Part shown: piece after piece, positions 1-14,938 of the stretch
How positions within the stretch are numbered: position 1 is the stretch's first letter
Layout of the letters: the number at the start of each line of letters is the position of its first letter
Virus record (IMG/VR): IMGVR_UViG_2693429635_000019
Location: 1-15,775 of that record
DNA from: a virus
Taxonomy: Duplodnaviria; Heunggongvirae; Uroviricota; Caudoviricetes
Reading direction: 5' to 3' (one strand)
DNA: 15,775 nucleotides
Program-made: the position numbers and the translations under genes
The notes under the pieces: generated by a model
The model's database searches: none
What the model saw: the letters and a program-made list of their open reading frames with translations, nothing else
What the model was told of the DNA's origin: nothing

Positions 1-1248
1 ATGGCACTGAATATTCCATTCAGAAATGCGTACTATCGTTTTGCATCCAGTTACTCATTTCTCTTTTTTATTTCCTGGTCGCTGTGGTGGTCGTTATACG
101 CTATTTGGCTGAAAGGACATCTAGGGTTGACAGGGACGGAATTAGGTACACTTTATTCGGTCAACCAGTTTACCAGCATTCTATTTATGATGTTCTACGG
201 CATCGTTCAGGATAAACTCGGTCTGAAGAAACCGCTCATCTGGTGTATGAGTTTCATCCTGGTCTTGACCGGACCGTTTATGATTTACGTTTATGAACCG
301 TTACTGCAAAGCAATTTTTCTGTAGGTCTAATTCTGGGGGCGCTATTTTTTGGCTTGGGGTATCTGGCGGGATGCGGTTTGCTTGATAGCTTCACCGAAA
401 AAATGGCGCGAAATTTTCATTTCGAATATGGAACAGCGCGCGCCTGGGGATCTTTTGGCTATGCTATTGGCGCGTTCTTTGCCGGCATATTTTTTAGTAT
501 CAGTCCCCATATCAACTTCTGGTTGGTCTCGCTATTTGGCGCTGTATTTATGATGATCAACATGCGTTTTAAAGATAAGGATCACCAGTGCGTAGCGGCA
601 GATGCGGGAGGGGTAAAAAAAGAGGATTTTATCGCAGTTTTCAAGGATCGAAACTTCTGGGTTTTCGTCATATTTATTGTGGGGACGTGGTCTTTCTATA
701 ACATTTTTGATCAACAACTTTTTCCTGTCTTTTATGCAGGTTTATTCGAATCACACGATGTAGGAACGCGCCTGTATGGTTATCTCAACTCATTCCAGGT
801 GGTACTCGAAGCGCTGTGCATGGCGATTATTCCTTTCTTTGTGAATCGGGTAGGGCCAAAAAATGCATTACTTATCGGAGTTGTGATTATGGCGTTGCGT
901 ATCCTTTCCTGCGCGCTGTTCGTTAACCCCTGGATTATTTCATTAGTGAAGTTGTTACATGCCATTGAGGTTCCACTTTGTGTCATATCCGTCTTCAAAT
1001 ACAGCGTGGCAAACTTTGATAAGCGCCTGTCGTCGACGATCTTTCTGATTGGTTTTCAAATTGCCAGTTCGCTTGGGATTGTGCTGCTTTCAACGCCGAC
1101 TGGGATACTCTTTGACCACGCAGGCTACCAGACAGTTTTCTTCGCAATTTCGGGTATTGTCTGCCTGATGTTGCTATTTGGCATTTTCTTCTTGAGTAAA
1201 AAACGCGAGCAAATAGTTATGGAAACGCCTGTACCTTCAGCAATATAG
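1..1248 (+). CDS. cscB: MFS oligosaccharide:H+ symporter (LacY family), sucrose permease-like; host chromosomal gene
   Basis: 415-aa ORF, ATG at 1, stop TAG 1246-1248; hydrophobic 12-TM-like profile with LacY-family layout; from memory matches E. coli CscB (415 aa, begins MALNIPFRNAYYRF); csc locus is known to lie near argW. Confidence 0.8.
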   Translation: MALNIPFRNAYYRFASSYSFLFFISWSLWWSLYAIWLKGHLGLTGTELGTLYSVNQFTSILFMMFYGIVQDKLGLKKPLIWCMSFILVLTGPFMIYVYEPLLQSNFSVGLILGALFFGLGYLAGCGLLDSFTEKMARNFHFEYGTARAWGSFGYAIGAFFAGIFFSISPHINFWLVSLFGAVFMMINMRFKDKDHQCVAADAGGVKKEDFIAVFKDRNFWVFVIFIVGTWSFYNIFDQQLFPVFYAGLFESHDVGTRLYGYLNSFQVVLEALCMAIIPFFVNRVGPKNALLIGVVIMALRILSCALFVNPWIISLVKLLHAIEVPLCVISVFKYSVANFDKRLSSTIFLIGFQIASSLGIVLLSTPTGILFDHAGYQTVFFAISGIVCLMLLFGIFFLSKKREQIVMETPVPSAI

Positions 1249-1689
1249 ACGTAAACTTTTTCCGGTTGTTGTCGATAGCTCTATATCCCTCAACCGGAAA
1301 ATAATAATAGTAAAATGCTTAGCCCTGCTAATAATCGCCTAATCCAAACGCCTCATTCATGTTCTGGTACAGTCGCTCAAATGTACTTCAGATGCGCGGT
1401 TCGCTGATTTCCAGGACATTGTCGTCATTCAGTGACCTGTCCCGTGTATCACGGTCCTGCGAATTCATCAAGGAATGCATTGCGGAGTGAAGTATCGAGT
1501 CACGCCATATTTCGCTATCAGGATTCTGTGTGATGGTTACATCGCCCGGCTCAGGGCTGTTTAGTCATCAGCGCTTTCTGACAGTGCTGAGATTTCAACC
1601 TGTTGCAGTAAAAATGAGTAGATATAAGGCAAGTGTGCTGCCAAACCCATCTTTTACGGGGTGAAGGTAGATTTCGTTTGAAGGGTATC

Positions 1690-1704
1690 TGGTGTCCCCT
1701 GCAG
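1690..1704 (-). other. tRNA-Arg (argW-type) 3'-terminal fragment CTGCAGGGGACACCA; candidate prophage att core at the host junction
   Basis: Minus strand reads CTGCAGGGGACACCA, equal to the last 15 nt (end of T-stem, acceptor 3' strand, CCA) of argW as I recall it; no tRNA 5' part upstream. Confidence 0.5.
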
Positions 1705-1761
1705 ACATCTACTTGACGAGGCAGGGGATTGATTGGAATGGTGTTTTTTAGATATGAGAAA

Positions 1762-1783
1762 TATTTTACCCGCTATTTTACCC
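1762..1783. repeat. Tandem direct repeat TATTTTACCC x2 (spacer GC) between att core fragment and torI 3' end; candidate recombinase/RDF arm-type binding sites
   Basis: tattttaccc at 1762-1771 and 1774-1783 seen directly; position inside putative attR arm. Confidence 0.35.
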
Positions 1784-1978
1784 ATTGGCGCGGCTTAAGA
1801 GCTTATTTTTGAATTCACAATGGTCACGATATAACCATCTTGCTCGCCCGTGGATAACTTTGGCTTTAGGCAGGTCCCCGGACTTAATCCGGTCATAGAT
1901 GAAGGTTTTACCGAAGCCAGTATCGGCCATGATGAATTTCAAATCAACCAGTGAATCAGGCTGTAGTTCGTGTTGCAT
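1778..1978 (-). CDS. torI: AlpA/TorI-family excisionase (recombination directionality factor)
   Basis: 66-aa ORF, ATG at 1978 with GGAGA RBS 6 nt upstream; sequence MQHELQPDSLVDLKFIMADTGFGKTFIYDRIKSGDLPKAKVIHGRARWLY has AlpA-like winged-helix pattern and matches my recollection of E. coli KplE1 TorI (66 aa). Confidence 0.7.
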   Translation of the reverse strand: MQHELQPDSLVDLKFIMADTGFGKTFIYDRIKSGDLPKAKVIHGRARWLYRDHCEFKNKLLSRANG

Positions 1979-1997
1979 GAGTGCTATCTCCGAATAG

Positions 1998-2013
1998 GGA
2001 ATCGAACCTGCAA
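1998..2013 (-). other. tRNA-Arg (argW-type) T-arm fragment TTGCAGGTTCGATTCC (16 nt), second att-related remnant
   Basis: Minus strand TTGCAGGTTCGATTCC equals argW variable/T-stem/T-loop segment; diverges exactly where fragment 1690-1704 begins in the tRNA. Confidence 0.5.
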
Positions 2014-2023
2014 ATCAGGCAAT

Positions 2024-2044
2024 AAAAAAACCGCATTGATGCGG
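2024..2044 (-). terminator. Rho-independent terminator closing the leftward early operon
   Basis: Minus strand CCGCATCAATGCGG stem-loop followed by TTTTTTTAT; lies 60 nt downstream of the stop of CDS 2104-2448. Confidence 0.6.
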
Positions 2045-2103
2045 CAATGGCAGGTCTGGATATCTTGAGAAATGAACAGGCCTCATCGAGTGTGAGGCTG
2101 TGG

Positions 2104-2448
2104 TTAGTCCTTGCGTAACTCGCTAATTCTTCTGTAAGTCTCTGGTGCTTTGTTTCCGTGTATCTTCATTTCAGACTTCAACAGAGCAACGAGGGAATCC
2201 CATTCGTTGAGGATGCCTTTGAATGCCGGAACGCGCTTTGCAACCTTGTCGAATGAATCTCTGATTTCTGGGATCTGCTCAACAAGTGCAACGCATCGTC
2301 GGAAATCGGCTGCGTCATGTGGAGCGCCGAAGTGATGACCATAGATATTCTTTTTCAGTCCACATGCGATTGAGGCAAGAGTTGCGCTACTGATGCCGAC
2401 ATCGCCAGTCGATTGCCATTTCAAAACCTTCATAGCCAAATCTGACAT
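2104..2448 (-). CDS. Hypothetical protein, 114 aa (moron-like, flanked by hairpins)
   Basis: ORF track 2104-2475 trimmed to internal ATG at 2448 preceded by GGAGA RBS (spacing 6); the upstream part of the longer ORF overlaps a terminator-like hairpin. Confidence 0.6.
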   Translation of the reverse strand: MSDLAMKVLKWQSTGDVGISSATLASIACGLKKNIYGHHFGAPHDAADFRRCVALVEQIPEIRDSFDKVAKRVPAFKGILNEWDSLVALLKSEMKIHGNKAPETYRRISELRKD

Positions 2449-2460
2449 TTCTTGTCTCCA

Positions 2461-2485
2461 ATAAAAAACCGCCATCAGGCGGCTT
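2461..2485 (-). terminator. Terminator-like hairpin (CCGCC-TGAT-GGCGG + T-tract) between Zn-ribbon gene and CDS 2104-2448
   Basis: Minus strand AAGCCGCCTGATGGCGGTTTTTTAT; GC stem followed by T6. Confidence 0.4.
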
Positions 2486-2548
2486 GGTGTTCTTTCAGTT
2501 CTTCAATTCGAATATTGGTTACATTGTTTTCATATATGAATAAATAAA

Positions 2549-2728
2549 TTAGCTTTTTTCGTTGCCTTCGCGTTCTTTATTAATTTTGACAAACTCGTTT
2601 TTACCACGCTCTCCAAATGCGTCTTTAGAGTCGTTGTATCCGCAATCGCAGCACACATAATCACCAGACCATCCACGCATTGTTTTTTCTTTTGCAATAT
2701 TTCCAGAACCGCATTTTGGACAAGACAT
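2549..2728 (-). CDS. Small zinc-ribbon protein (CPKC...CCDC), 59 aa
   Basis: ORF track 2549-2761 (TTG start) trimmed to ATG at 2728 with strong GGAGGT RBS; two Cys pairs CxxC and CCxC; AT-rich surrounding sequence. Confidence 0.55.
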   Translation of the reverse strand: MSCPKCGSGNIAKEKTMRGWSGDYVCCDCGYNDSKDAFGERGKNEFVKINKEREGNEKS

Positions 2729-2824
2729 ATCACTACCTCCAAAGCATGAGTGAGATGACAACGTAACATTGATTGGAGATTAACAATAGATTGCTGATGT
2801 AAAAGATATGTATAAGCTTCGCTT

Positions 2825-3445
2825 TCAAAGTGGAGGCTCTGGTAGCGGCATCCAGTGTGACGGCTCACATACCCCCTCAACACCATTCATGTAAAAGAAT
2901 TGAAATAACCCTTTACCTTTGTGAAACCCTACCATCTGCTCTTTTGTGTCTGAGCAATAAACCAAAACATCTTCTTCGTTTGGCATTCGATCACTACAGC
3001 TTATCCAACCATCCGGAGTTACCGGAGAGTTGCCAGATAGCTCGTTCAACTTGTAAGTTTGGCTTACAGGTTCGGCACCATGAAGCATGGCGTCGCGGCA
3101 GGAGTTCCAGCCTCTCACCTCTGCAATAGCGGCAACAGCATCGACCGCGTACATTTTAAGAGGGTTAGGCATTGGTTTTTCTTCAGGTACTACTGGCACT
3201 GGAGGGGCGGCATAAACAGGAATAACGTCCGATTGCTCTTTATTGCTTTCATCCGTTAAAGCCCAGAATAATTTCCCAGCCGGATGTTTGAAAATATAAG
3301 CAACCGGTTCTGCTTCCAGCGATGCCAGAGCAATTCGTGCCAGTTCTTCCGCTTCTTCTGCTGGCAGTACAACGTTGCTACCCGGTCCGTATGTTTCGCG
3401 CCACTGCTTGATTGTCAGCAGTCGCTCTTTGGTTATAGTGGTCAT
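2825..3445 (-). CDS. DUF551-domain phage protein, 206 aa
   Basis: ATG at 3445 overlapping upstream stop (ATGA), AAGGA RBS; C-terminus ...WISCSDRMPNEEDVLVY...HWMPLPEPPL matches the DUF551 signature as I remember it. Confidence 0.75.
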   Translation of the reverse strand: MTTITKERLLTIKQWRETYGPGSNVVLPAEEAEELARIALASLEAEPVAYIFKHPAGKLFWALTDESNKEQSDVIPVYAAPPVPVVPEEKPMPNPLKMYAVDAVAAIAEVRGWNSCRDAMLHGAEPVSQTYKLNELSGNSPVTPDGWISCSDRMPNEEDVLVYCSDTKEQMVGFHKGKGLFQFFYMNGVEGVCEPSHWMPLPEPPL

Positions 3446-3957
3446 GCCGCGTTTCCTTCTTTCTTATTAACAATTACACCGTCATATATTTCATTAAGGT
3501 GCCCTCTCAACTCCATGCGCCTTAATGCAGATAACATGTAATCGCATTCAACCTGCTTATTTCCAGTAAATGGCTTATCGTCAGGATTACCCCAACAGCA
3601 ATTACCCTTGGGCCACCCATGTACTTTCCGTACTCTTCCGTTAACAACGTGAAGTAATCCCCAGCCAGGTGGTAAATCCTCAATTGAAATAATTCCCGGC
3701 TCACTAATAAAGAATCGCCAGTCGCCCATGCCAAGTGAGGGATTTTTACGGAAACGCTTTTTTCTATCTGCCAACAAATCAGCACGAGAACACTTCGCCT
3801 CTATCAGGCATGATGCTGAATTTCTGAATCCCATAGCATCTGGCTGTTCTCCGGTACTGGTTACAGCTATAAAGCGGTCATGAAAACAAACCTTGAACCC
3901 GTTGCGCTTAAGGAACTTGTACGCAATCTGACAGAGTTCGCTGTGTGTTAACGCCAT
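3442..3957 (-). CDS. Hypothetical phage protein, 171 aa, with PD-(D/E)XK-like D...EAK signature
   Basis: ORF track 3442-4008 trimmed to ATG at 3957 (upstream extension overlaps preceding gene); motif PDAMGF...CLIEAKCSRADL resembles restriction-endonuclease-fold core. Confidence 0.65.
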   Translation of the reverse strand: MALTHSELCQIAYKFLKRNGFKVCFHDRFIAVTSTGEQPDAMGFRNSASCLIEAKCSRADLLADRKKRFRKNPSLGMGDWRFFISEPGIISIEDLPPGWGLLHVVNGRVRKVHGWPKGNCCWGNPDDKPFTGNKQVECDYMLSALRRMELRGHLNEIYDGVIVNKKEGNAA

Positions 3958-3961
3958 ATCC

Positions 3962-4363
3962 CTAATTCCCCTTGATGCTGACTTTGACGCCAACCTTGCG
4001 AATCTCATCGGCGCATCTGTTCACGATACTCCGGTGAAACTCACAAAAAATTTTCGCCGACTGCGGCCCTAATGGGTGAACATCGTGCGCACGCGGCAGT
4101 ACAACCTCCCGCGCCTCCATGTCAGCAATCCGCTTGTCTTTGGCTTCCAGCTCATCCAGCAGCGCCCGAACTACATCAGCGGTTTTCTGGCACTGGTCAA
4201 CAATGCTAACGTCACAACCAGTATCGAAACCGTCCTCAGTTTCAAAGCGGAGCTCTACAGAGTCGCCGTCGATATCAGATGGTTCGAACCCGGCAATGTT
4301 TTCCAGAATGCCGATTATGCTTTCTGCGCTATGACGTAATGCGCGTTTGTCGATGTTGCTCAT
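3962..4363 (-). CDS. Hypothetical phage early protein, 133 aa (possibly Ea22-like; coiled-coil segment)
   Basis: ATG at 4363 overlapping stop of upstream gene; LDELEAKDKRIADMEA coiled-coil-like stretch; family assignment from memory only. Confidence 0.6.
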   Translation of the reverse strand: MSNIDKRALRHSAESIIGILENIAGFEPSDIDGDSVELRFETEDGFDTGCDVSIVDQCQKTADVVRALLDELEAKDKRIADMEAREVVLPRAHDVHPLGPQSAKIFCEFHRSIVNRCADEIRKVGVKVSIKGN

Positions 4364-4641
4364 TGGGCGGCCTCCGGTATTTTTCTTGCGCTGAATTGAG
4401 GTACATGTTCCATTTCAACCGTGAATACACCTACGCTCTCACCGTCAATGAATAGCTCGATATCCAACGGCCAGTCAGATTCCAAGCCGTCATGATTGTC
4501 AAAATAATCAAGGGAGGCATCCTGAGACAAGCATTCCAATTCCCACTCAGAAATGAGCTCATCGATGTGTCGAGGATCGAGAAAAAACGCATCCTCAGGA
4601 AACGTGCCTGCATCTCTAACTACGTACTGGATTACGCTCAT
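4360..4641 (-). CDS. Strongly acidic small protein, 93 aa
   Basis: ORF track 4360-4695 trimmed to ATG at 4641 with AAGGAGG RBS and ATGA overlap with upstream stop; about 22 Asp/Glu versus 4 Arg/Lys. Confidence 0.65.
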   Translation of the reverse strand: MSVIQYVVRDAGTFPEDAFFLDPRHIDELISEWELECLSQDASLDYFDNHDGLESDWPLDIELFIDGESVGVFTVEMEHVPQFSARKIPEAAQ

Positions 4642-4985
4642 TGGTTGCCTCCTTTGCGAAGCTGGGCAGCAATACTTACGCATATCTCTGCGCATCTAAT
4701 CAGCCCCGGAACGTTCTTGTTTGGCCCAACTTCACCATCAACAAAATCAATCATCGCGTTACGAGCCATCTCCACACCCTGCGCCCGCACTTCAGCCAGG
4801 AAGGCGTCGGTGGCTGGGGTTCCCTCTACCACTAACCCTACTGGAGCTAGATATTCTTTCATCCCCGCATTCTCCACAGCCAGCGCCGCGCACTTGGCCT
4901 CAAGGTTATCAATCGTGATTCCAGCAGAACGACACTCACGCAACGCTGTTTCTAGTTTTGATTCAAGTTCACCGAACTTACGCAC
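4638..4985 (-). CDS. Hypothetical protein, 115 aa (GTG start, no clear RBS; possibly 3' part of a frameshifted gene)
   Basis: Only in-frame start upstream of internal Met is GTG at 4985, immediately after a stop; overlaps a 42-aa ORF (4952-5080) in another frame. Confidence 0.45.
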   Translation of the reverse strand: MRKFGELESKLETALRECRSAGITIDNLEAKCAALAVENAGMKEYLAPVGLVVEGTPATDAFLAEVRAQGVEMARNAMIDFVDGEVGPNKNVPGLIRCAEICVSIAAQLRKGGNQ

Positions 4986-5076
4986 CAGATATCAGCGTTT
5001 GTTTCGTTAACCTTTAAATCACTTGGGATGCATTTACCTTTCAGAAATCCATCCATCTCAATTAGTGACATTTGTT

Positions 5077-5241
5077 TCATTTCTTCCCACTCCGCCACAT
5101 CGCATTCAGATATTTGTTTTGATTCACTGATGGAAAAGAATTTCTCTTAAGCAATTCCTCTCTCGATGGCATTGGCTTTACGCGTTGGCGAATAATCATT
5201 TCTGCCGGAAGAATGCCGGGATTGTATGCAAGACCTCTCAT
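5077..5241 (-). CDS. Small hypothetical protein, 54 aa (not in ORF track)
   Basis: ATG at 5241 overlapping stop of upstream gene (ATGA), GGAGAG RBS 8 nt upstream, stop TGA 5077-5079; hand-translated. Confidence 0.4.
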
Positions 5242-5528
5242 GATTTACTCTCCACGAACTGGTCAATAGCCATGCTAAGTGACACACCTAAAGTCTCGAT
5301 ATGCTGCTGAATATCCTGTAGCGTCTGCGCCTGAGATAACAGGATTTCACGGTTGCATAACTCTTTAACCAGATGCTCAAACTTGCTGTAATAACCGATA
5401 CGGCTTAGTGTTTCTTTCCCTGCATTCTCGCCTTCTTTGATAATTCCTCTTTCGCTAAGAATCAGATCGTGTTTTGTTCCGGTAATAACGTATTTTCCGA
5501 GGTCGATGTTTAGCTTCATTGTTTTCAT
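5238..5528 (-). CDS. Hypothetical phage protein, 96 aa
   Basis: ORF track 5238-5678 trimmed to ATG at 5528 preceded by GAGGAA RBS; longer version would overlap upstream gene. Confidence 0.6.
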
Positions 5529-5538
5529 TGTTAATTCC

Positions 5539-5832
5539 TCAGTCATTACTGATAGCGCCATAGCGTGAGCGGTAATTACGCAGGCGCGGGTCGATTTCAG
5601 GGAAGTGGGTATATGTGGCTTTGCGGAATGGTCGGATTGATGTCTGGTAAATTCGCTCTCGTTCTTCTTTCTCTGCAAGCCATATGCAGTGGCGAAACTC
5701 CTTTTCCTCTTTCGTTTCCTGCGGTAGAGACATTATTCGATCGTAGTTTTTTCTGAATTTATCCAGCACCTCCGATACGGAATTGCCGGAACAGCGGCGC
5801 GGGTCATCCGCACCATACAGAGGCGCTGGCAT
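5539..5832 (-). CDS. Hypothetical phage protein, 97 aa (sits where P22 has abc genes; unverified)
   Basis: ATG at 5832 with AAGGA RBS; basic/charged composition; position downstream of erf/ssb-like. Confidence 0.6.
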   Translation of the reverse strand: MPAPLYGADDPRRCSGNSVSEVLDKFRKNYDRIMSLPQETKEEKEFRHCIWLAEKEERERIYQTSIRPFRKATYTHFPEIDPRLRNYRSRYGAISND

Positions 5833-5855
5833 AATGGAATCCTTATTTTGCTAAT

Positions 5856-6239
5856 CTAGAAGGGAATTGAATCGTCGTATTCAGGATGATTTTGATGATT
5901 GCTACTTTGCTGCTGTTGGCTGTTTCCTGAAGTTGCAAATCCAATCTTTGCATTCAGTAATTCAAGAGTGATTGATTGACCATTTTGCCCCTGATAAACA
6001 TCAACCCTGATGTTTTCTCCGGTAATTTCCACAATGCCACCTTCAACAAGAACACTACGGTAGTAATCCGCTTGCGCTCCCGGCTTGGCAAATACAACGG
6101 CGCTGTAGTTTGTCCATTCTTTCTTTTTTGTCTGGCGATCGTAATACTGAACGCCAGCACGGATGTTGAATCCGATATTTTCCCCGGCCTGAAACTCTCT
6201 TGCGGGCTTGTTTAGTCTTACAGTAATCGAATGTGCCAT
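5856..6239 (-). CDS. Phage single-stranded DNA-binding-like protein with SSB-type C-terminal tail (...EYDDSIPF)
   Basis: ORF track 5856-6329 trimmed to ATG at 6239 (TAATG overlap with erf stop); OB-fold-like N-terminus, Gln/Ser-rich linker, C-terminal DDSIPF resembling E. coli SSB DDDIPF. Confidence 0.65.
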   Translation of the reverse strand: MAHSITVRLNKPAREFQAGENIGFNIRAGVQYYDRQTKKKEWTNYSAVVFAKPGAQADYYRSVLVEGGIVEITGENIRVDVYQGQNGQSITLELLNAKIGFATSGNSQQQQSSNHQNHPEYDDSIPF

Positions 6240-6844
6240 TAAGCAGCCGCTCCTTCTAATTCGTCTCGTCTGATGTTGTAAACGTCCTGTGCTTTGTGCT
6301 GCTCCGGTGTGCCTTCGAGCATCTTCCACGCTTTGGCGAACGCCTGTTTAAGCTCTTCTACGGTGTTTTTCTGCAATGCTGCGTCAGTGAATGCTTTTAG
6401 AACCTGTTCAGGTGTAGGTGATGGTTTTGATTGCTTTGCTGCTGCGTTCTGCTGATGTTTATGCTCGTCGGTATCTGCATCTTTCGCATCATCAATGCCG
6501 AACAAACCATTGAGGCAATACTTGCGTGCATAAGAGCTTGTAGCTCCCGTAACTTGTGCAGAATCCATTCCTTTCTTGCTTTCTTCCTCTCGTGCAAGAG
6601 CGGTTGCCGTATGGCTGTTTTCGCCATCGGTAATAGTTGCCGTGGCTTTCACGTAATACCGATCACCAATCAGCACAACTTCATCGCTGATTGATAAAAA
6701 CAGGCCATTCAGTAACGGCTTAACGCCTTCAAGAATGTCTTCGCAGCTTCTGTATTTATATTTGCCGAATGAGTTGTACTGATTCTTTGGCGCGTTCAGA
6801 TTCTCCTGAATAGCTGCCAGTCTTGCGTAAAATTCTTTGCTCAT
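6239..6844 (-). CDS. erf: Erf-family single-strand annealing recombinase
   Basis: ORF track 6239-6874 (TTG) trimmed to ATG at 6844; N-terminus MSKEFYARLAAIQENLNAPKNQYNSFGKYKYRSCEDILE matches my recollection of P22 Erf; about 201 aa. Confidence 0.75.
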   Translation of the reverse strand: MSKEFYARLAAIQENLNAPKNQYNSFGKYKYRSCEDILEGVKPLLNGLFLSISDEVVLIGDRYYVKATATITDGENSHTATALAREEESKKGMDSAQVTGATSSYARKYCLNGLFGIDDAKDADTDEHKHQQNAAAKQSKPSPTPEQVLKAFTDAALQKNTVEELKQAFAKAWKMLEGTPEQHKAQDVYNIRRDELEGAAA

Positions 6845-7103
6845 ATGATTGTTCTCAGAATGGACATGGCCCAAGGAAATAACGCTGATTTAATACTTCG
6901 ACTCGGGACAAATTAAGGCATACCCGCATTCCTTCGCGGTCGCCATTATGGCGATACCAGAGAGCTTTCTGCGTGTACATGCGTCTCTGTAACTTGCTCT
7001 CCTTCACTGTGGTTGCAAGTGACATGCATATCTCCTTCGTTACCGATTAATTCTTTCATCTGACGAATGAATTCTTTGTCTGACCAGTTATCTTTGACAT
7101 CCT

Positions 7104-7123
7104 CCACGCCCTAAAGGGCGTGG
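7104..7123 (-). repeat. Perfect 8-bp stem hairpin (CCACGCCC-TTTA-GGGCGTGG) containing the tnpB stop codon; candidate IS right-end / omega-RNA structural element
   Basis: Inverted repeat seen directly; TAG stop of tnpB at 7111-7113 lies in the loop/stem. Confidence 0.6.
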
Positions 7124-8202
7124 ATTCCTCCTTCGAGACGGCGATGTCCCGCCGCGAGAATGTTCTTTGCCGCGTTTACGTCGCGGTCGTGGAGTTCACC
7201 ACATTCCACGCAGATCCATTCTCTTATTCCAAGGCCTACCCTACCCTTCGGACTACTGCAGCTAATAGCTCCGCAGCACGAGCAAGTCTGGGTGGTGTAC
7301 GCTTCATCTACGACCTCAAAAACCACACTCCGCGCAATCGCTTTATACTGAATCTGATTTTTTAGCTGACACCAGCCGGCGTCGTAGATACTTTTTGCCA
7401 AATTTGTTTTTGATAACTTTTTACTGCTTACGTCGCCTACAAAAATAGCGGCGTATTTATTAACCAGCGCCGTAGAAAACTTATGGTGTGCATCTTTACG
7501 GCGATTTTTGATTTTTGCGTGGATAGCTCTAACACGTTTTTTATTATGGGCACGTTGAGCAATTTTTAATTTGCCTTCTAATTCACGATACCAACGTTTA
7601 GCAGGAAGTTTTTCACCATCCGAAGTGGTGGCAATGTCTTTCAGACCAAGATCGATACCCACGTCGGCAGTGCCTTTAGTTGGTTCGCATTCGTATTCAA
7701 CTGCAACATTGAAATACCAGCGACCGCGCGCATCTTCTGCAAAGTTACCAGCACGGAATTTAAAGCCATTTAATCCATAGCTATCCCACACTTTGAAATA
7801 GTGCCCGGCAAACTTGATGCAGCCGTTTACCCATTTCACTTGAGCACCTTTGAACGGAACCCAACCAAGACTACGCCCAGCACCGCCACTTTTACGCCAG
7901 CGCAGCTTACTGCGTTTAAACTGTTTACGCGCTTTAGCGTGATGTTTTGAGATTTCCTGACAAGTAGCTGCTTGTATGTGGTATCCGCGCTCCTTTTGAA
8001 TACCAGCAATGCGTTTATCTACGTCAAATTCAGTTAACCAAACTCTTTGTTTTGGTCCGTATTCGCTGACAGTGCTGTATTCAGTCGCAGTCATTTCATT
8101 GATAAAGTTAAAAACTTGGTTCACTTCAAAGGCCATCTGACGCAACAAGGCGGCGTGGCGGTCTTTGACGCGTACCTGCAATGTTTTAGTCTGAATAGCC
8201 AT
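7111..8202 (-). CDS. tnpB: TnpB-like protein (IS200/IS605 OrfB family, RuvC-like + zinc finger), 363 aa; RuvC-II catalytic position apparently substituted
   Basis: ATG at 8202 with AAGGGGAG RBS; GIDLGLKD (RuvC-I), AYTTQTCSCCG...CVECG zinc finger, HDRDVNAAKNILAAG (RuvC-III); expected hhhEDLN motif reads AIFVGDVSS. Confidence 0.9.
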   Translation of the reverse strand: MAIQTKTLQVRVKDRHAALLRQMAFEVNQVFNFINEMTATEYSTVSEYGPKQRVWLTEFDVDKRIAGIQKERGYHIQAATCQEISKHHAKARKQFKRSKLRWRKSGGAGRSLGWVPFKGAQVKWVNGCIKFAGHYFKVWDSYGLNGFKFRAGNFAEDARGRWYFNVAVEYECEPTKGTADVGIDLGLKDIATTSDGEKLPAKRWYRELEGKLKIAQRAHNKKRVRAIHAKIKNRRKDAHHKFSTALVNKYAAIFVGDVSSKKLSKTNLAKSIYDAGWCQLKNQIQYKAIARSVVFEVVDEAYTTQTCSCCGAISCSSPKGRVGLGIREWICVECGELHDRDVNAAKNILAAGHRRLEGGIHAL

Positions 8203-8228
8203 TTACTTGCTCCCCTTATTGGTAAAAC

Positions 8229-8399
8229 TCATGGACGGCCTTGTTGTTTCAAAATATCCCAAAGCTTTTCGAGCAAGCTTTTCATTCTTGGTTGTTTAAA
8301 GTCTGCTCCGGTTAAAATATTTTTTCGTGAATGCTGTACCGATAAAATCGGGTTGAAAGGGCGAACCGATGCCGCCCCTGCAATAGCGAACTGTTGCAT
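8229..8399 (-). CDS. cIII: CIII-like small protein (FtsH inhibitor homolog), 56 aa
   Basis: Internal ATG at 8399 of ORF 8229-8504 with AAGGAG RBS; MQQFAIAG... and ...LLEKLWDILKQQGRP resemble lambda CIII (MQYAIAG...RLIDILNQPGVP) from memory; followed upstream by a terminator as in lambda tL1-cIII. Confidence 0.55.
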   Translation of the reverse strand: MQQFAIAGAASVRPFNPILSVQHSRKNILTGADFKQPRMKSLLEKLWDILKQQGRP

Positions 8400-8605
8400 A
8401 GGATGCTCCTTCTGTTTGATTGCATAACGAAAACGCCTCGAGTGAAGCGTTATTGGTATGCATATAAAAAGGCCCTCACACTGGAGGGCAAAGAAGATTT
8501 CCAATAATCAGAACAAGTCGGCTCCTGTTTAGTTACGAGCGACATTGCTCCGTGTATTCACTCGTTGGAATGAATACACAGTGCTGTGTTTATTCTGTTG
8601 TTTAT

Positions 8606-8634
8606 GCCAAAAATAAAGGCCGACTATGCGGCCT
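8606..8634 (-). terminator. Rho-independent terminator (tL1-like) between membrane-protein gene and cIII-like gene
   Basis: Minus strand AGGCCGCATAGTCGGCCT followed by TTATTTTTGG; 5 nt downstream of stop at 8639. Confidence 0.6.
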
Positions 8635-8638
8635 GAAA

Positions 8639-9004
8639 TTACTTAACCAATGATGCCGCATATTCGATAAGGTAAAGTTTTGGAGCAAGCCAAATCTTCA
8701 GCCAGTCGAAATAATTGAAAAAAACAATAACAGAAGTAATCTCTATTCCTGATGTGACAAGTAGCGATAAGATCACAATATCCGCATCATCTCCTTTATT
8801 CCATGCAAAAATCATCAGATAAACACACGCTATAATCACCAATACACAGATAGCCTGAATTCCAGCTGATGATACGGCGTGCCACATCAAAAGCTGATGG
8901 ATGACATCAGGAATCTGTGCCTGGCTAAATGAAACAGCCGCGTCTATTCCATTGCTGGCTTTTTGCAGTAGTTCTACGAGAATCTTGTTTGCTTGTTCTT
9001 CCAT
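8639..9004 (-). CDS. Small membrane protein (2-3 predicted TM helices), 121 aa; candidate superinfection-exclusion-type protein by position
   Basis: ATG at 9004 with AAGGTGA RBS; long hydrophobic segments (AGIQAICVLVIIACVYLMIFAW, IVILSLLVTSGIEITSVIVFF); occupies the sieB position of lambda. Confidence 0.6.
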   Translation of the reverse strand: MEEQANKILVELLQKASNGIDAAVSFSQAQIPDVIHQLLMWHAVSSAGIQAICVLVIIACVYLMIFAWNKGDDADIVILSLLVTSGIEITSVIVFFNYFDWLKIWLAPKLYLIEYAASLVK

Positions 9005-9063
9005 ATATCACCTTGATTGTAATAAGCATGAAATTATTTACGGCTAAAAAATAAAGGCCACCA

Positions 9064-9315
9064 TCAGGCAGCCTTGTTGTAAATGTTGCAGGTATCAAGT
9101 AAGTAATTAGATGGAGCGCCATAAATTATGAATTCATCGTTTGTCGGATCCATCTCCATCTCTTGGCCTATTGCCACTCTTGCGTCAGTGTCATCAGCGG
9201 CGAAGCATAAAACAGCCCACGCTCCCATTGTTTTAAAAAGAACTGCAATTGGCTGTGGTTTTACTGAATTTGCGTTAGCGCGAAAATCACAAATCGCACT
9301 TTCATGAAATTCCAT
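9064..9315 (-). CDS. Hypothetical protein, 83 aa, immediately downstream of N
   Basis: ORF track 9064-9372 trimmed to ATG at 9315 with GAGGT RBS; longer form would overlap N. Confidence 0.55.
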   Translation of the reverse strand: MEFHESAICDFRANANSVKPQPIAVLFKTMGAWAVLCFAADDTDARVAIGQEMEMDPTNDEFIIYGAPSNYLLDTCNIYNKAA

Positions 9316-9323
9316 ATCTAACC

Positions 9324-9650
9324 TCAAATAAGTGGTTTGCTGCCTAATTTCATTTTCTGGCGACCAACACAAGTCACACCCATTTCACTGCGTGGCTTGC
9401 TGTACCATGTGCGCTGATTCTTGCGCTCAATACGTTGCAGGTTGCTTTCAATCTGTTCGTGGTATTCAGCCAGCACCGTAAGGTCTATCGGATTCAGTGC
9501 GCTTTCTACTCGTGATTTCGGTTTGCGATTCAGCGAGAGAATAGGGCGGTTAACTGGTTTTGCGCTTACCCCAACTAACAGGGGATTTGCTGCTTTCCAT
9601 TGAGCCTGTTTCTCTGCGCGACGTTCGCGGCGGCGTGTTTGTGCATCCAT
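9324..9650 (-). CDS. N: Antitermination protein N (lambda-type)
   Basis: ORF track 9324-9782 trimmed to ATG at 9650 with GGAGA RBS; MDAQTRRRERRAEKQAQWKAANPLLVGVSAKPVNRPILSLNRKPKSRVESALNPIDLTVLAEYH... near-identical to lambda N as remembered; arginine-rich N-terminal motif. Confidence 0.9.
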   Translation of the reverse strand: MDAQTRRRERRAEKQAQWKAANPLLVGVSAKPVNRPILSLNRKPKSRVESALNPIDLTVLAEYHEQIESNLQRIERKNQRTWYSKPRSEMGVTCVGRQKMKLGSKPLI

Positions 9651-9807
9651 CTGGATTCTCCTGTCAGTTAGCTTTGGTTGTGTGTGGGAGTCGTAGTCCT
9701 GAACGAAAACACCCCGCAATGGCACATTGGCAGCTAATCCGGATTCGCACTTCCGGCCAATGCTTCGTTTCGTATCACACACACCAAAGCCTTCTGCTTT
9801 GAATGCT

Positions 9808-9838
9808 GCCCTTCTTCAGGGCTTAATTTTTAAGAGCC
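9808..9838 (-). promoter_or_regulatory. nutL site (boxA GCTCTTA, boxB GCCCTGAAGAAGGGC)
   Basis: Minus strand GCTCTTAAAAATTAAGCCCTGAAGAAGGGC identical to lambda nutL as remembered; located between PL and N. Confidence 0.85.
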
Positions 9839-9871
9839 TCACCTTCATGGTGGTTAGTGCGTCCTGCTGAT

Positions 9872-9900
9872 GGCTAAATAGTACGATTTGTACTTTATCG
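9872..9900. promoter_or_regulatory. Candidate OL operator sites (GTAC-centred 17-bp motif) overlapping PL
   Basis: cgatttgtactttatcg (9884-9900) in the PL spacer closely matches OR site tctaaaagtacatatcg (10754-10770) when read on the minus strand; second GTAC at 9881-9884 over the -10. Confidence 0.45.
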
Positions 9901-9906
9901 AGTCAA
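9878..9906 (-). promoter_or_regulatory. PL promoter (-35 TTGACT, 17-bp spacer, -10 TACTAT)
   Basis: Minus-strand hexamers with consensus spacing; downstream sequence from ATCAGCAGGACGCACT onward matches the lambda PL leader. Confidence 0.7.
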
Positions 9907-9969
9907 TACAAAATGTTCTAAATATGATTAGTTTTTTATAACGCTTTGTATTTAATGGGTTTATGTTTT

Positions 9970-10001
9970 GGAAAAAGAAAACCCGACGCTAAGGTCGGGT
10001 T
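9970..10001 (-). terminator. Rho-independent terminator downstream of the repressor gene
   Basis: Minus strand AACCCGACCTTAGCGTCGGGTT stem-loop followed by TTCTTTTTCC; resembles lambda terminator distal to cI/rex. Confidence 0.6.
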
Positions 10002-10031
10002 ATTGTTGTGTGTTTTAGAGTTGTGAGGCTG

Positions 10032-10691
10032 TTAACTAAATGTCTCTTCAGGCCACTGGCTGGCGATAACTTTCCCTACTACGGAACAGCTATCATTGCA
10101 TGGAATCATTGGATATTGCGGGTTTAGTGGCTGTAGGAACACCTGACCGCTATCCCTGATCAGTTTCTTGAAGGTAAACTCGTCACCACCAAGTCTGGCT
10201 ATGCAGAAATCACCTGGCTCAACAGCCTGCTCAGGGTCAACGAGAATTAACATCCCGTCAGGAAAGCTTGGCTTGGATCCTGTTGGCGCGGTCATGGAAT
10301 TACCTTCAACTTCAAGCCAGAACGCACAATCACTGGCTTTTTTGGTTGTGCTGACCCATCTCTCCGCATCACCTTTGGTAAAGGTTCTAAGCTCAGGCGA
10401 GAACATCCCGGCCTGAACATGAGAAAAAACAGGGTACTCATATTGTTTTTTAACGGGGGCAGATGAGTATTCGCCAACAGGTGAAAATGTACCGTCGTGG
10501 TTGAATGAGACGTTATCAATACCAAGGTATTTAAACACCACACCAATCTCGTCAAGAGATGGATGACGAGATCCGCGCAACCAGTGACCAATTCCACCCT
10601 GCGTCATACCAAGCTCTTCAGCTAACTTCTCTTGAGTTATGCCGAGCTCTTTCATTCTGGATCTAGCCAGTTCATACCATTTCATTTTCAT
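10032..10691 (-). CDS. cI: CI-type phage repressor, hybrid: heterologous XRE-type HTH N-domain + lambda-identical C-terminal S24 autopeptidase domain
   Basis: C-terminal 140 aa ([39 protein letters not shown]...[15 protein letters not shown]) match lambda CI from memory; N-terminus differs; start chosen at ATG 10691 (AAGGG RBS), alternatives ATG 10727 or TTG 10733. Confidence 0.85.
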
Positions 10692-10703
10692 ACCCTTATT
10701 ATT

Positions 10704-10770
10704 ACGCTCTGTACTAAAACCATCCATGCACAAGATGTATTTTTTGTTTGCATTCTAAAAGTACATATCG
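10704..10770. promoter_or_regulatory. OR operator region: three candidate sites about 25 bp apart (10704-10720, 10729-10745, 10754-10770) sharing an AAAGTACA-like core
   Basis: GTAC-centred 17-mers at the two outer positions, degenerate middle site; outer site fills the PR spacer, inner site abuts the repressor start. Confidence 0.45.
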
Positions 10771-10776
10771 TATTAT
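10748..10776 (+). promoter_or_regulatory. PR promoter (-35 TTGCAT, 17-bp spacer, -10 TATTAT)
   Basis: Hexamers and spacing seen directly, 27 nt upstream of cro ATG. Confidence 0.6.
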
Positions 10777-10802
10777 TGTTTCATGGTTACTATGGAGGGC
10801 AT

Positions 10803-11018
10803 ATGAGCAACCTACGAAAATATCGAGAGTCACTGAATATCTCTCAAACAACACTTGCTAAGGCAGTTGGATGCACACAGGGAGCTATCGGACATTGGGA
10901 ATCTGGTCGTCGCTTCCCAGACCTTAAAACATGCCGTGCTCTTGTTGAGTGCCTAAACAAGTTAGGCGCAAAAGTCAGTCTTGATGACGTGTTCCCGCCG
11001 GAACACAAAGCCGCTTAA
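10803..11018 (+). CDS. cro: Cro-like repressor (XRE-family HTH), 71 aa
   Basis: ATG at 10803 with GGAGGG RBS; HTH ISQTTLAKAVGCTQGAIGHWESGRR similar to the repressor recognition region; divergent from repressor gene; ORF track extension 10632-10802 is non-coding. Confidence 0.8.
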   Translation: MSNLRKYRESLNISQTTLAKAVGCTQGAIGHWESGRRFPDLKTCRALVECLNKLGAKVSLDDVFPPEHKAA

Positions 11019-11026
11019 GACATTCT

Positions 11027-11058
11027 AGCTCTTACACATCCCCGCCCTGAAAAAGGGC
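11027..11058 (+). promoter_or_regulatory. nutR site (boxA AGCTCTTA, boxB GCCCTGAAAAAGGGC)
   Basis: boxB identical to lambda nutR boxB as remembered, boxA one mismatch; immediately downstream of cro. Confidence 0.85.
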
Positions 11059-11134
11059 ATTACCAGAAACAAATCTCTATGGTTTTGCGTTTCTTTGCGA
11101 AGCCAACTCTATCTAATCATTAAGGAAATTATCT

Positions 11135-11416
11135 ATGGTTACTATTGCAACTAAAAGCAAGAAAGCGGCTCGCATCGAGTCGGCCTTGCTGAACAAACTG
11201 GCACTGATGGGGCAGAAGACATTCGCTCGAGCAATGGGGGTTCCTGAATATCAGGTAAGCCGATGGAAGAATGGTTTCTTCTCGCAGGTAAGCATGATGC
11301 TTGCTGTTCTGGAATACGGAATCGAAGACGATGAAATGGCTGAATTGACTAAGCGGCTTGCCGATTACCTGACAAAAGAAAAAGCCCCGAAGAACGGCGA
11401 ATTCTTCGAGGCCTGA
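11135..11416 (+). CDS. cII: CII transcriptional activator (lambda-type)
   Basis: 93 aa; ARIESALLNKLALMG...SRWK...MLAVLEYGIEDDEMAEL aligns to lambda CII; AAGGA RBS. Confidence 0.9.
   Translation: MVTIATKSKKAARIESALLNKLALMGQKTFARAMGVPEYQVSRWKNGFFSQVSMMLAVLEYGIEDDEMAELTKRLADYLTKEKAPKNGEFFEA
11384..11412 (-). terminator. Antisense intrinsic terminator inside 3' end of cII (oop-like RNA terminator candidate)
   Basis: Minus strand GCCTCGAAGAATTCGCCGTTCTTCGGGGC stem-loop followed by TTTTTCTTTT; lambda oop terminates at the equivalent position. Confidence 0.4.
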
Positions 11417-11450
11417 TGTAGAAAGACTGGATCAATCCACAGGAGTAATT

Positions 11451-11612
11451 ATGACAAAACGTCGTAAGAAATACCAGGAAAAAGAAGAGATTCGACACCC
11501 TGATTCACCTGAGGGATTAGTGGTAGCCGCAGCAAATAACAGGGCGTTCGCAGAGCGCCTTGTTGGTGTTTACAGACTAGCCAAAGCAGGAGTGAAACAT
11601 GGGCGTCGTTAA
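11451..11612 (+). CDS. Small basic protein, 53 aa (not in ORF track)
   Basis: ATG at 11451 with AGGAG RBS 5 nt upstream; stop TAA 11610-11612, overlapping the start of the replication initiator by 14 nt. Confidence 0.35.
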   Translation: MTKRRKKYQEKEEIRHPDSPEGLVVAAANNRAFAERLVGVYRLAKAGVKHGRR

Positions 11613-12489
11613 GTTAGCTGATTACAGGCATAACCCTGTACAACATCAGGAGGCATCCAGTATGGGGTATGTCTCTATACACCGCCAGTTTATGGACAGC
11701 AGGCTCTATAAGGACTCTCAGGCAGTACATCTTTGGCTTCACTTAATCCTCAAGGCTAATCACGAATCTACTGTCGTCAATACGGATATCGGTCCGATAA
11801 CTGTTGATCGCGGTCAGATGATAACTGGACGCCCGTCGCTGGTCAGAGAAACATTCATCCCCGACAACAAAGTTCGGAGCTTATTACGGACTTTTGAGTC
11901 GAAAGGGATGCTTAATATTTCCTCGATGGGGAAGAAATTTAGCCTGTTTACAATCGTTAAATATGACGATTTTCAGGCAAAAAATTGTCCAACGGTTGTC
12001 CAACGGTTGTCCAACGCAAACACCAGTAATGGCGCGGCTCTCAGCGGAGATTGTCCAACGGTTGTCCAACGGTTGTCCATAAACAATAATATAAATAATA
12101 TCTCTAATACTGACGTATTAGGGAGTGCCACAGCAGACAAAAAGTCTGACAAGAAAAAACCTTCCGTTAGCTGTCAGGATGTTGTCGATGCTTACCACGA
12201 AATCCTTCCTGAAGCGCCAAGAATCCGCGCACTGAATGACAAGCGTAAAAACCAGATCCGAACGTTCTGGCGCAAAGCCGGAGTGATAACCCGCCAGCTT
12301 GACGGGCATGGGTTCACGATGCAGGACTGGAGAAATTATTTGAGCTACGTAGGAGAAAATTGCCGATGGATGTTCGAAGAGCGCCCAAACCATCAACGCG
12401 GAACTGTCTGGCACAAAAAGGGATTTGATTTCCTGCTTAACGATAATACCTACCTGAAAGTTCGTGAGGGTGAACACGATGACCGATAA
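11599..12489 (+). CDS. Replication initiator protein (lambda O / P22 gp18 functional analogue) containing the origin iterons
   Basis: 296 aa, ATG 11599 with GGAG RBS; internal direct repeats plus AT-rich tract typical of lambdoid ori inside the initiator gene; followed by DnaB-like helicase. Confidence 0.8.
   Translation: MGVVKLADYRHNPVQHQEASSMGYVSIHRQFMDSRLYKDSQAVHLWLHLILKANHESTVVNTDIGPITVDRGQMITGRPSLVRETFIPDNKVRSLLRTFESKGMLNISSMGKKFSLFTIVKYDDFQAKNCPTVVQRLSNANTSNGAALSGDCPTVVQRLSINNNINNISNTDVLGSATADKKSDKKKPSVSCQDVVDAYHEILPEAPRIRALNDKRKNQIRTFWRKAGVITRQLDGHGFTMQDWRNYLSYVGENCRWMFEERPNHQRGTVWHKKGFDFLLNDNTYLKVREGEHDDR
11985..12080 (+). repeat. Origin iterons: two clusters of TTGTCCAACGG direct repeats (11985-12016 and 12051-12080) followed by an AT-rich unwinding tract (12081-12120)
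   Basis: Repeats read directly: ttgtccaacggttgtccaacggttgtccaacgc ... ttgtccaacggttgtccaacggttgtccat then aaacaataatataaataatatctctaatac. Confidence 0.75.
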
Positions 12490-13915: not shown

Positions 13916-13943
13916 TGACCATCTACATCACTGAGCTAATAAC

Positions 13944-13975
13944 AGGCCTGCTGGTAATCGCAGGCCTTTTTATTT
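13944..13975 (+). terminator. Rho-independent terminator-like hairpin after helicase gene
   Basis: AGGCCTGC-TGGTAATC-GCAGGCCT followed by TTTTTATTT; overlaps a possible 27-aa ORF (13915-13998). Confidence 0.5.
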
Positions 13976-13990
13976 GGGGGAGAGTAAATC

Positions 13991-14197
13991 GTGGCTGAGT
14001 TTATGCTCGTCGCATTCAAATGCGTTGGCGTTGGATGGATTCTTCTGACGTTTTTTATTGTTCTGCGTAGCTACATTCGTCTTGTGAATGACGGCAAAGA
14101 CCCATGGTATACGTTGTTTGGCGCTGCATTTGTCTGGGTGATTATCGGTGTTATGCCTGTTGTCGTAGCAAAAATGGCGTGGCGTTTTGTGAGTTGA
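13991..14197 (+). CDS. Small membrane protein 1 (2 TM), 68 aa
   Basis: GTG at 13991 preceded by GGGGGAGAG (ATG 14003 alternative); two hydrophobic helices. Confidence 0.45.
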   Translation: MAEFMLVAFKCVGVGWILLTFFIVLRSYIRLVNDGKDPWYTLFGAAFVWVIIGVMPVVVAKMAWRFVS

Positions 14198-14214
14198 ACT
14201 GAGGGTAAGTATCG

Positions 14215-14481: not shown

Positions 14482-14483
14482 GC

Positions 14484-14669: not shown

Positions 14670-14728
14670 AGGAGTGTTCAGTGAAGCAAACCCTTTTTTA
14701 TTGGATTAAGAGCGAGTGGTAAGTACCG

Positions 14729-14911: not shown

Positions 14912-14938
14912 CCCAAAAAATCATCGATGGAGAGTGAT

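Follow-up and report, generated by a model that had tools for sequence, protein, structure and literature searches.

The window analysed here is a stretch of 15,775 nucleotides (positions 1 to 15,775 of the IMG/VR virus record IMGVR_UViG_2693429635_000019, Caudoviricetes), which is a junction of the Escherichia coli csc sucrose locus with a lambdoid, P22-like prophage, and our subject is a small prophage gene encoding a strongly acidic protein of 93 amino acids. The gene occupies 4360..4641 on the minus strand, from an ATG at 4641-4639 to a TGA at 4362-4360 (93 codons), and its product, MSVIQYVVRDAGTFPEDAFFLDPRHIDELISEWELECLSQDASLDYFDNHDGLESDWPLDIELFIDGESVGVFTVEMEHVPQFSARKIPEAAQ, has been assigned by translation, composition, homologues, substitution rates and a profile match to the PHROG 20438 family. 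A Shine-Dalgarno sequence, AAGGAGG, is found on the same strand (4648..4654, read 4654-4648), 6 nucleotides ahead of the ATG, and the junction that contains it, ...CGCAAAGGAGGCAACCAATGAGCGTAATCC, is identical in E. coli CFSAN061770. The stop codon of the upstream open reading frame (ORF), TGA at 4640-4638, overlaps the start of the acidic gene as ATGA, and the stop of the acidic gene overlaps, also as ATGA, the ATG (4363-4361) of a downstream ead/Ea22-like gene. A first-pass annotation of the window had described a perfect AAGGAGG ribosome-binding site and ATGA overlaps on both sides, and all of these can be read in the sequence. A mechanical ORF list gave instead a protein of 111 amino acids starting at an ATG at 4695. 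This start was rejected, and since all homologues begin at MSVIQY the 93-residue start is the correct one.

The protein contains 22 acidic residues (11 Asp and 11 Glu) and only 4 basic ones (1 Lys and 3 Arg), together with 3 His, which gives a calculated charge of -18.2 at pH 7 and a pI of 4.05; the earlier count of about 22 Asp/Glu against 4 Arg/Lys, with a net charge near -18, was thus accurate. It is the most acidic product of the 17 likely genes of the window, and its net charge per residue, -0.19, lies about 2.9 standard deviations below the mean of 128 neighbouring phage proteins (mean -0.006, standard deviation 0.065), none of which reaches this value. A charge of -0.19 per residue is within the range of Ocr and Ugi. 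Comparison with six homologues (synonymous divergence, dS, of 0.3-0.65) yields ratios of non-synonymous to synonymous substitution (dN/dS) of 0.11-0.26, and therefore the gene is real and constrained, being under purifying selection. Its acidity is not a chance property of a random ORF.

PHROG 20438, annotated as of 'unknown function', is matched over its full length (E 4e-44, residues 3-90 on profile positions 1-92 of 92), and the same family is matched by 72 of 72 diverse relatives; it is unannotated and lacks both a structure and a Pfam or NCBIfam model. A word-indexed search retrieved only close relatives from E. coli, Enterobacter and Citrobacter, 76-100% identical, all of 93 amino acids and all named 'hypothetical protein'. 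An exhaustive profile search over 1.84 billion cluster representatives (clusters at 50% identity) recovered 484 clusters at E <= 0.001, 34 of them at E <= 1e-10, nearly all being single-domain proteins of 80-100 amino acids. The longer relatives are extended by about 20-90 residues at the N-terminus or end in C-terminal tails, both uninformative, and one of 144 amino acids resembles a read-through with a DUF551-like neighbour. All of the 175 relatives retrieved are acidic, with a mean net charge of -12.8, 127 of them below -10 and none at or above 0.

Column conservation, computed over 172 aligned sequences, gives the family the signature A..DY..NHDGWE[SA]xWP ... G.F.VE.E..P.FSA. Its N-terminal and central columns are Y6 (95%), A43 (91%), D45 (76%) and Y46 (91% aromatic), followed by the string H50 (81%), D51 (91%), G52 (99%), W53 (86%) and E54 (91%), and by W57 (95%) and P58 (98%). 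In the C-terminal part stand G71 (81%), F73 (74%), V75 (87%), E76 (78% acidic), E78 (93% acidic), P81 (99%), F83 (99%) and A85 (81%). Acidic residues occupy positions 34, 36, 40, 41, 44, 45 and 48 in 41-79% of the sequences each, and elsewhere reach 93% at D51, 95% at E54, 73% at D66, 78% at E76 and 93% at E78. In the window, the first block of the signature, N-H-D-G-(W)-E-x-x-W-P, corresponds to codons 49-58 (4468..4497, minus strand), which follow a predicted helix (residues 32-49) and read N-H-D-G-L-E-S-D-W-P in this copy; the second block, F.VE.E..P, corresponds to codons 72-81 (4399..4428, minus strand), V-F-T-V-E-M-E-H-V-P, on a predicted β-hairpin strand (residues 68-79). The family is thus defined by its non-acidic residues as much as by its acidic ones.

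The structure of the protein was predicted with AlphaFold2 from a 7-sequence alignment (mean predicted local distance difference test score, pLDDT, 81.1; predicted template modelling score, pTM, 0.76) and from a 72-sequence alignment (mean pLDDT 82.0, pTM 0.67, five models at 71-82). Both models have one topology, consisting of a strand at 4-8, a short strand at about 19-21, a helix at 32-49 and a hairpin at 59-65/68-79, to which the model from seven sequences adds a strand at 82-87. In these models A39, A42, A43 and Y46, together with L35 and L38, would form the buried face of the helix, and positions 34, 36, 40, 41, 44, 45 and 48 its exposed acidic face. In the hairpin, the hydrophobic residues 59, 61, 63, 73, 75 and 77 are predicted to face the core, and the acidic ones at 60, 62, 74, 76 and 78 to point outward. 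The hairpin register would place E76 and E78 opposite W57 and S55/E54, beside the H50-D51-G52-W53-E54 loop, which would gather the most conserved polar residues at a single pole of the domain. This compact H/D/G/W/E-W-P and E-x-E cluster suggests a specific docking site rather than a distributed, phosphate-like array acting by generic mimicry.

A pole of this kind might also be a pocket, formed by His50, Asp51, Glu54, Glu76 and Glu78 with Trp53 and Trp57, in which case the protein would be a small metal- or ligand-binding one, acting as a sponge or a mini-enzyme, and its acidity would be secondary. The most conserved polar residues are indeed H, D, E and E-x-E, they should converge at one end of the predicted sheet, flanked by aromatic residues, and phage sponges for immune signals are similar in size to this protein. 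We nevertheless consider this explanation very unlikely: known nucleotide sponges use basic pockets, whereas Arg and Lys are nearly absent from the family outside the C-terminal tail; no enzyme or sponge family was matched in Pfam, NCBIfam or the PDB; and Trp53 can be replaced by Leu, as in the copy of the window, which occurs on 35 contigs.

Searches of Pfam, NCBIfam, PADLOC and the sequences of the PDB related the protein to no family with a known but unrelated function. The acidic protein matched no Pfam family at E <= 0.1, no NCBIfam family, and none of the PADLOC hidden Markov models of defence systems at E <= 0.1, and the sole Pfam match among the 72 relatives was a weak one to DUF309 (E 0.005), judged to be spurious. 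Searches of all PDB chains, by phmmer with the single protein and by hmmsearch with the 72-sequence profile, gave nothing below E 0.9, that is, chance matches. Foldseek comparison of the predicted structure with the PDB gave nothing significant either (best E 0.7), and with BFVD a single significant match, an unnamed viral protein of 92 amino acids with 24% identity, which is presumably a family member. PHROG 20438 is, then, an uncharacterised and moderately widespread family of phage proteins with no known fold relative.

The same searches bear on the DNA mimics. Since structures have been solved for Ocr, ArdA, Arn, Ugi, p56, Gam, gp5.9 and the DNA-mimicking anti-CRISPRs, the sequence and fold searches of the PDB covered all of them. 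Neither Ocr (PF08684), ArdA (PF07275) nor the other solved DNA mimics and anti-restriction proteins showed sequence homology to the acidic protein in Pfam or the PDB, and the fold search with its predicted structure gave no significant match to Ocr, ArdA, Arn, Ugi, or the solved DNA mimics and anti-CRISPRs; the protein is not a member of those known mimic families. It resembles them (T7 Ocr, ArdA, T4 Arn, Ugi/p56, T7 gp5.9, lambda Gam, AcrIF2/AcrIIA4) in being small, early, stand-alone and very dense in Asp and Glu, and its acidic residues appear, in the models, to be conserved along one face of the helix and one face of the sheet. It differs from them in the strongly conserved aromatic/His/Gly/Pro motif, which is atypical of proteins whose function is spread over many carboxylates, as is the case of Ocr, with a robust mimicry distributed over many of these groups (PMC3439906). 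AcrIF9 (PDB 7bb5/7chr) and the T4 Dmd antitoxin (5hy3_B) are also listed among the closest known systems.

With respect to its distribution, the family matched, among phage records, three from Klebsiella (a phage entered in both GenBank and RefSeq, and another phage), two from Vibrio and one from Bordetella; in Klebsiella phage VLCpiS13d the gene is one of a series of small ORFs that separate primase/helicase from terminase. A search of IMG/VR with a motif-selected alignment returned forty family loci, and the species-representative genomes of GTDB five loci among 185,579 (Kluyvera, Acinetobacter, Xenorhabdus, a metagenome-assembled genome of Shapirobacteria, and Pseudothauera). Among 72,556 plasmids there was a single weak match, and the possibility that this is a gene of plasmid leading regions was rejected on that ground. 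Only 2 of 5,426 complete E. coli genomes carry the gene, with its flanks present in 1,787 of them. From this distribution as a whole, it is essentially a phage- and prophage-restricted, patchy and rare cassette, a pattern typical of accessory genes involved in arms races.

In the window, the acidic gene stands between the recombination genes and xis, in the order ERF, Abc2, DUF2737, acidic gene, DUF551 and TorI-like xis, the features from the repressor to the excisionase, listed next, all being on the minus strand. Upstream are found a separately transcribed S24/helix-turn-helix (HTH) repressor (10733-10032), a protein with the arginine-rich N36 peptide of lambda N (9782-9324), an IS200/IS605 OrfB/TnpB gene (8202-7111, PF01385 and a Cas12f1-like TNB domain), the ERF recombinase (6874-6239), the anti-RecBCD protein Abc2 (5832-5539, E 6e-64) and DUF2737 (5241-5077). 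Directly upstream lies the C-terminal two-thirds of an Ea22-like coiled-coil protein (4638..4985, PHROGs 492/614/368), the stop of which is the one that overlaps the start of the acidic gene, and the N-terminal fragment of the same gene is located in another frame (4952..5098), as deduced from translation and alignment to the intact gene of CFSAN061770. The downstream ead/Ea22-like protein (3962..4363, PF13935 Ead_Ea22, E 1.4e-8) is followed by a protein of 188 amino acids of PHROG 9263/631 (3442-4008, function unassigned in PHROG), two genes downstream of the acidic one, and then by DUF551, a small zinc-ribbon ORF, PHROG 1229 and the TorI-like excisionase (1978-1778). CII and DnaB are on the other side. 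Since no minus-strand terminator-like site exists within 6704-3320, the label of early operon given to this region in the first-pass annotation is right, and it can be specified, also by gene content, as the N-dependent leftward operon.

Some of these neighbours merit a comment of their own. A candidate SSB-like ORF at 5856-6329 (minus strand) ends in ...EYDDSIPF, an acidic tail of the SSB type, and may be a divergent phage single-strand-binding protein, having no Pfam SSB match at E <= 0.001. The 188-residue protein at 3442-4008 has a D...E-A-K signature, recognised by eye, that resembles PD-(D/E)XK, and a weak match to a 'DNA repair protein' PHROG, and could be a nuclease. The zinc-ribbon ORF, CxxC...CxxC, of 70 amino acids (2549-2761, minus strand) matches PHROG 2945 ('unknown function') and is Lar-like below threshold (PF14354, E 1.2e-4, 22.7 bits against a cut-off of 28.6; TIGR03655, E 0.036). 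On the bacterial side, an ORF for a major facilitator superfamily (MFS) transporter at 1-1248 corresponds to the 'oligosaccharide MFS transporter' of the csc locus of strain CFSAN061770, beside cscA, and the approximately 530 bp that separate it from the excisionase (1249-1778) hold a DUF4942-type remnant. No integrase was found in this interval, as in CFSAN061770, and the prophage either has no adjacent int or carries it at its other end.

The operon links the acidic gene by position to Ral, Lar and Abc2, the restriction-alleviation and anti-nuclease genes of lambdoid phages, since it belongs to the same type of operon and, in the window, is preceded by Abc2 at a distance of three genes. The analogy is positional only: no homology exists, the acidic protein matched neither the Lar (TIGR03655/PF14354) nor the Ral family, Lar is a Zn-ribbon, and Ral and Abc2 are not acidic mimics.

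The location between recombination genes and xis, with Ea22-like genes on both sides, is also that of the lambda exo-xis proteins (Ea22, Orf63, Orf61, Orf60a, Ea8.5, Orf73/TraR), genes of this region being known to affect lysogenisation and induction in lambda and Shiga toxin phages (PMC7093339, PMC3824215, PMC6213356). The protein could thus be a developmental modulator that tunes the lysis-lysogeny choice, induction, or host replication and cell cycle, in the way of Ea22, Orf63, Orf61, Orf60a and Ea8.5, and its occurrence among replication and recombination genes in more distant phages would fit this idea. We judge it unlikely. The protein has no sequence relation to any characterised exo-xis protein, including the PF13935 family that its neighbours do match; PHROG 20438 is present outside lambdoid phages and outside that region; and homologues are found in an apparently virulent Klebsiella phage (with primase, helicase and terminase, and no integrase in the 9.6-kb stretch examined), in which a role in lysogeny makes little sense. 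Moreover, we know of no exo-xis regulator with such extreme and conserved acidity.

Comparison of neighbourhoods gives a wider view of this context. When the same-strand ORFs within 5 kb of the gene were clustered for 44 loci, an Ea22 C-terminal-type gene was directly upstream in 16, essentially all of them enterobacterial, and other recurrent neighbours were a DUF551-type gene (14 loci) and an ead/Ea22-like gene directly downstream (10 loci). A library scan of 128 neighbour proteins from 26 dereplicated loci identified Ead_Ea22 (6), DnaB (3), DUF551 (3), Replication protein O (2) and HNH (2), with RecT, SSB, NinB, lambda P, DNA polymerase A, dCMP deaminase and others appearing once each, and no constant gene partner emerged across these loci. 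In Providencia, for instance, the acidic gene comes after an exonuclease, SSB and a C5 methyltransferase and before an integrase; in Marisediminitalea, after DNA polymerase A and ThyX and before a serine recombinase; and a further contig has it flanked by DUF1376 and HNH/NinB. The constant context is therefore a variable accessory stretch of the early replication/recombination operon, with no particular partner, which is as expected for a protein acting on a host target. The lack of a constant nuclease neighbour led to the rejection of another reading, in which the protein would act as antitoxin or immunity factor against an adjacent nuclease. As a separate, single case, in a 137-kb IMG/VR contig (L027) a family member is directly upstream of ORFs (5950-7345 and 8736-10115) whose N-termini resemble, by eye, NMN adenylyltransferase and nicotinamide phosphoribosyltransferase; these NAD+ salvage functions are candidate labels.

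The recurrence of Ea22-like genes raises the question of whether the acidic protein could work only within a three-gene module, serving the Ea22-like coiled-coil proteins beside it as partner subunit, chaperone or regulator. All the enterobacterial loci (L001-L013 and the window) have the upstream Ea22 C-terminal-type gene with overlapping stop and start, even where the module follows O/DnaB in the nin-side region, outside the early-left operon, and to this may be added the ten loci with a downstream ead/Ea22-like gene. PDB searches with the two Ea22-like neighbours gave no match. The association does not hold further: only 6 of the 128 neighbours match Pfam Ead_Ea22 and 10 match PHROG 368, and the loci of Acinetobacter, Vibrio type, Providencia and Marisediminitalea have no Ea22-like neighbours. 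In the window, the upstream gene is broken and the acidic ORF intact. Finally, the Ea22-like flanks occur without the acidic gene in 1787 E. coli genomes, and thus look like the recombination boundaries of a cassette slot. A partnership with Ea22-like proteins has, in our opinion, little probability.

The slot itself can be recognised from its edges. A 42-nucleotide junction that contains the Shine-Dalgarno sequence and the first codons (4631-4672) recurs at many boundaries of Ea22-like genes, and this stretch and a second one at 3900-3963 (42-64 nucleotides) are 95-98% identical at many Ea22-like junctions of E. coli prophages and phage-plasmids, the sequence between them being different. They look like module-exchange sequences flanking a cassette slot; in the classical picture of lambdoid phages, short conserved boundary sequences mediate the exchange of modules. 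In E. coli 88-3493, the equivalent slot (L049, 2959-3403), with the same Ea22-type flanks, holds the restriction-alleviation gene Lar and an acidic ORF of 69 amino acids, and in E. coli E10 (L050, 2964-3263) a DUF7739 gene. The 69-residue ORF (13 Asp/Glu, 6 Lys/Arg) is another uncharacterised candidate.

The state of the copy in the window has to be considered separately. Codon 53 (4483-4485, minus strand) is TTG (Leu), in a column that holds Trp (TGG) in 86% of the family and aromatic residues in 94%, W53L being a single-base change from TGG to TTG. Trp53 is kept in the CFSAN061770 copy (97.5% identical), in the close relatives L003-L010 and in all others of this group. The exact L53 protein was found on 35 contigs, which identifies it as an allele in circulation and not as the product of an error in sequencing. 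The upstream Ea22-like gene has a deletion of 1 nucleotide near 4991/4992 (GCTG-ATATC, against GCTGAATATC in the intact CFSAN061770 homologue of 143 amino acids), which splits it into a 48-codon fragment (5098-4952) and a 115-codon remainder, and it is probably a pseudogene. Ribosomes translating the frameshifted gene would stop about 310 nucleotides ahead of the ATGA, and coupling is thus broken, so that the acidic gene must rely on its own Shine-Dalgarno. The statement of the first-pass annotation that the gene is translationally coupled holds, then, for the ATGA overlap and the ribosome-binding site, but not for the functioning of the coupling in this copy. Furthermore, the IS605-family tnpB lies within this operon, in the interval from the N-like gene to ERF, which in the sister prophage of CFSAN061770 contains kil, cIII, Ral and small ORFs, and this element may be polar on everything downstream.

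These data allow the view that the acidic gene of this prophage is a decaying, non-functional remnant, whatever the function of the family. The change at a position that is so often Trp, the frameshift in the coupled gene, the TnpB element and the absence of an integrase beside the TorI-like xis next to cscB all point in that direction. The ORF is intact, with a perfect Shine-Dalgarno sequence, and the exact protein is carried by the 35 contigs already mentioned; Leu is a conservative substitute for a Trp that is probably buried; and the 3 synonymous and 4 non-synonymous changes with respect to the near-identical CFSAN061770 copy are too few to judge. On balance, we regard decay of this copy as distinctly unlikely.

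The first-pass annotation had proposed that the protein is a DNA mimic or an anti-restriction factor. This idea is consistent with the evidence, withstood the tests applied to it here and defines a candidate role, reasonable but unproven, the support for which is circumstantial. In our reading, the single most likely mechanism, in which we place somewhat less than even confidence, is the inhibition of a host protein that binds DNA or RNA, through charge complementarity or nucleic-acid mimicry. According to it, a stand-alone accessory protein, with a small α+β domain in which one helix packs on an antiparallel sheet, would be made early from the N-antiterminated leftward operon and would bind stoichiometrically to the positively charged, nucleic-acid-binding surface of a host protein. 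Such a target might be, for example, a nucleoid protein, an enzyme of DNA repair or processing, or a defence nuclease or restriction-modification complex. The interface would comprise the acidic face of the helix, the open acidic face of the sheet and the conserved cluster at one pole (His50-Asp51-Gly-Trp53-Glu54 / Trp57-Pro58 / Glu76-x-Glu78), and the outcome would be counter-defence or host takeover. The binding to a host protein, the identity of this target and the use of the acidic surface as interface are what we infer. This reading extends beyond restriction enzymes: acidic phage mimics are known to act on RecBCD-type nucleases, BREX, SMC/MukBEF, nucleoid proteins and Ung (PMC11317158, PMC7617805, PMC10303552).

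In favour of the inhibitor are the family-wide and position-specific acidity, the restriction to phages, the early operon shared with Abc2, the variable cassette slot that holds Lar elsewhere, and the lack of a constant partner; to the positional argument it can be added that Ral is present in the sister prophage of CFSAN061770.

Several points weigh against it. Every member is named 'hypothetical', and full-text literature searches gave no match to the motif strings, the accessions or the PHROG identifier. Conservation is highest at aromatic, Gly and Pro residues and in a compact H/D/E cluster that is possibly a metal or ligand site, and an acidic query profile may have biased retrieval towards acidic sequences. 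Among the neighbours of the 26 loci there is no enrichment of methyltransferases or known anti-defence genes, and no aca-type regulator is adjacent in the window, where the neighbours are Ea22-like, DUF551, DUF2737 and Abc2. The copy of the window has, in addition, the W53L change, and its prophage shows decay.

Two further negative results can be set beside these. No HTH family is found among the 25 commonest of the 62 Pfam families in the neighbours of the 26 loci. The motif is absent from the supplements of the 200-gene screen of accessory genes of Silas et al. 2025 (PMC12373910) and from those of the EVADES catalogue of 268 anti-defence proteins, files that may in both cases omit some sequences.

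A broader proposal can be formulated for the family as a whole. PHROG 20438, with about 480 clusters, may be an unrecognised and widespread family of nucleic-acid-mimicking inhibitors, with a fold unrelated to those of the solved mimics and anti-CRISPRs, that would dock on a host DNA-processing or defence protein through the H-D-G-W-E/W-P/E-x-E hot spot. This proposal is tentative, and we consider it rather doubtful as a whole.

The present value of the acidic protein is that of a well-defined, testable candidate for a screen of anti-defence or host-takeover functions, and not that of a discovery. If it turned out to be a developmental modulator or a metal binder, it would be one more conserved hypothetical early gene. 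A family of mimic inhibitors would constitute a new anti-defence family in lambdoid, T1-like, Acinetobacter and marine phages. If, on the contrary to a developmental or metal-binding role, a host protein of defence or DNA processing is what the family inhibits, a compact inhibitor of about 90 amino acids and novel fold would be added to the anti-defence catalogue, and its conserved motif makes the family easy to recognise across hundreds of phage lineages. In that case the Ea22-flanked slot, which about a third of the complete E. coli genomes have in their lambdoid prophages, would also be a place to mine for counter-defence genes.

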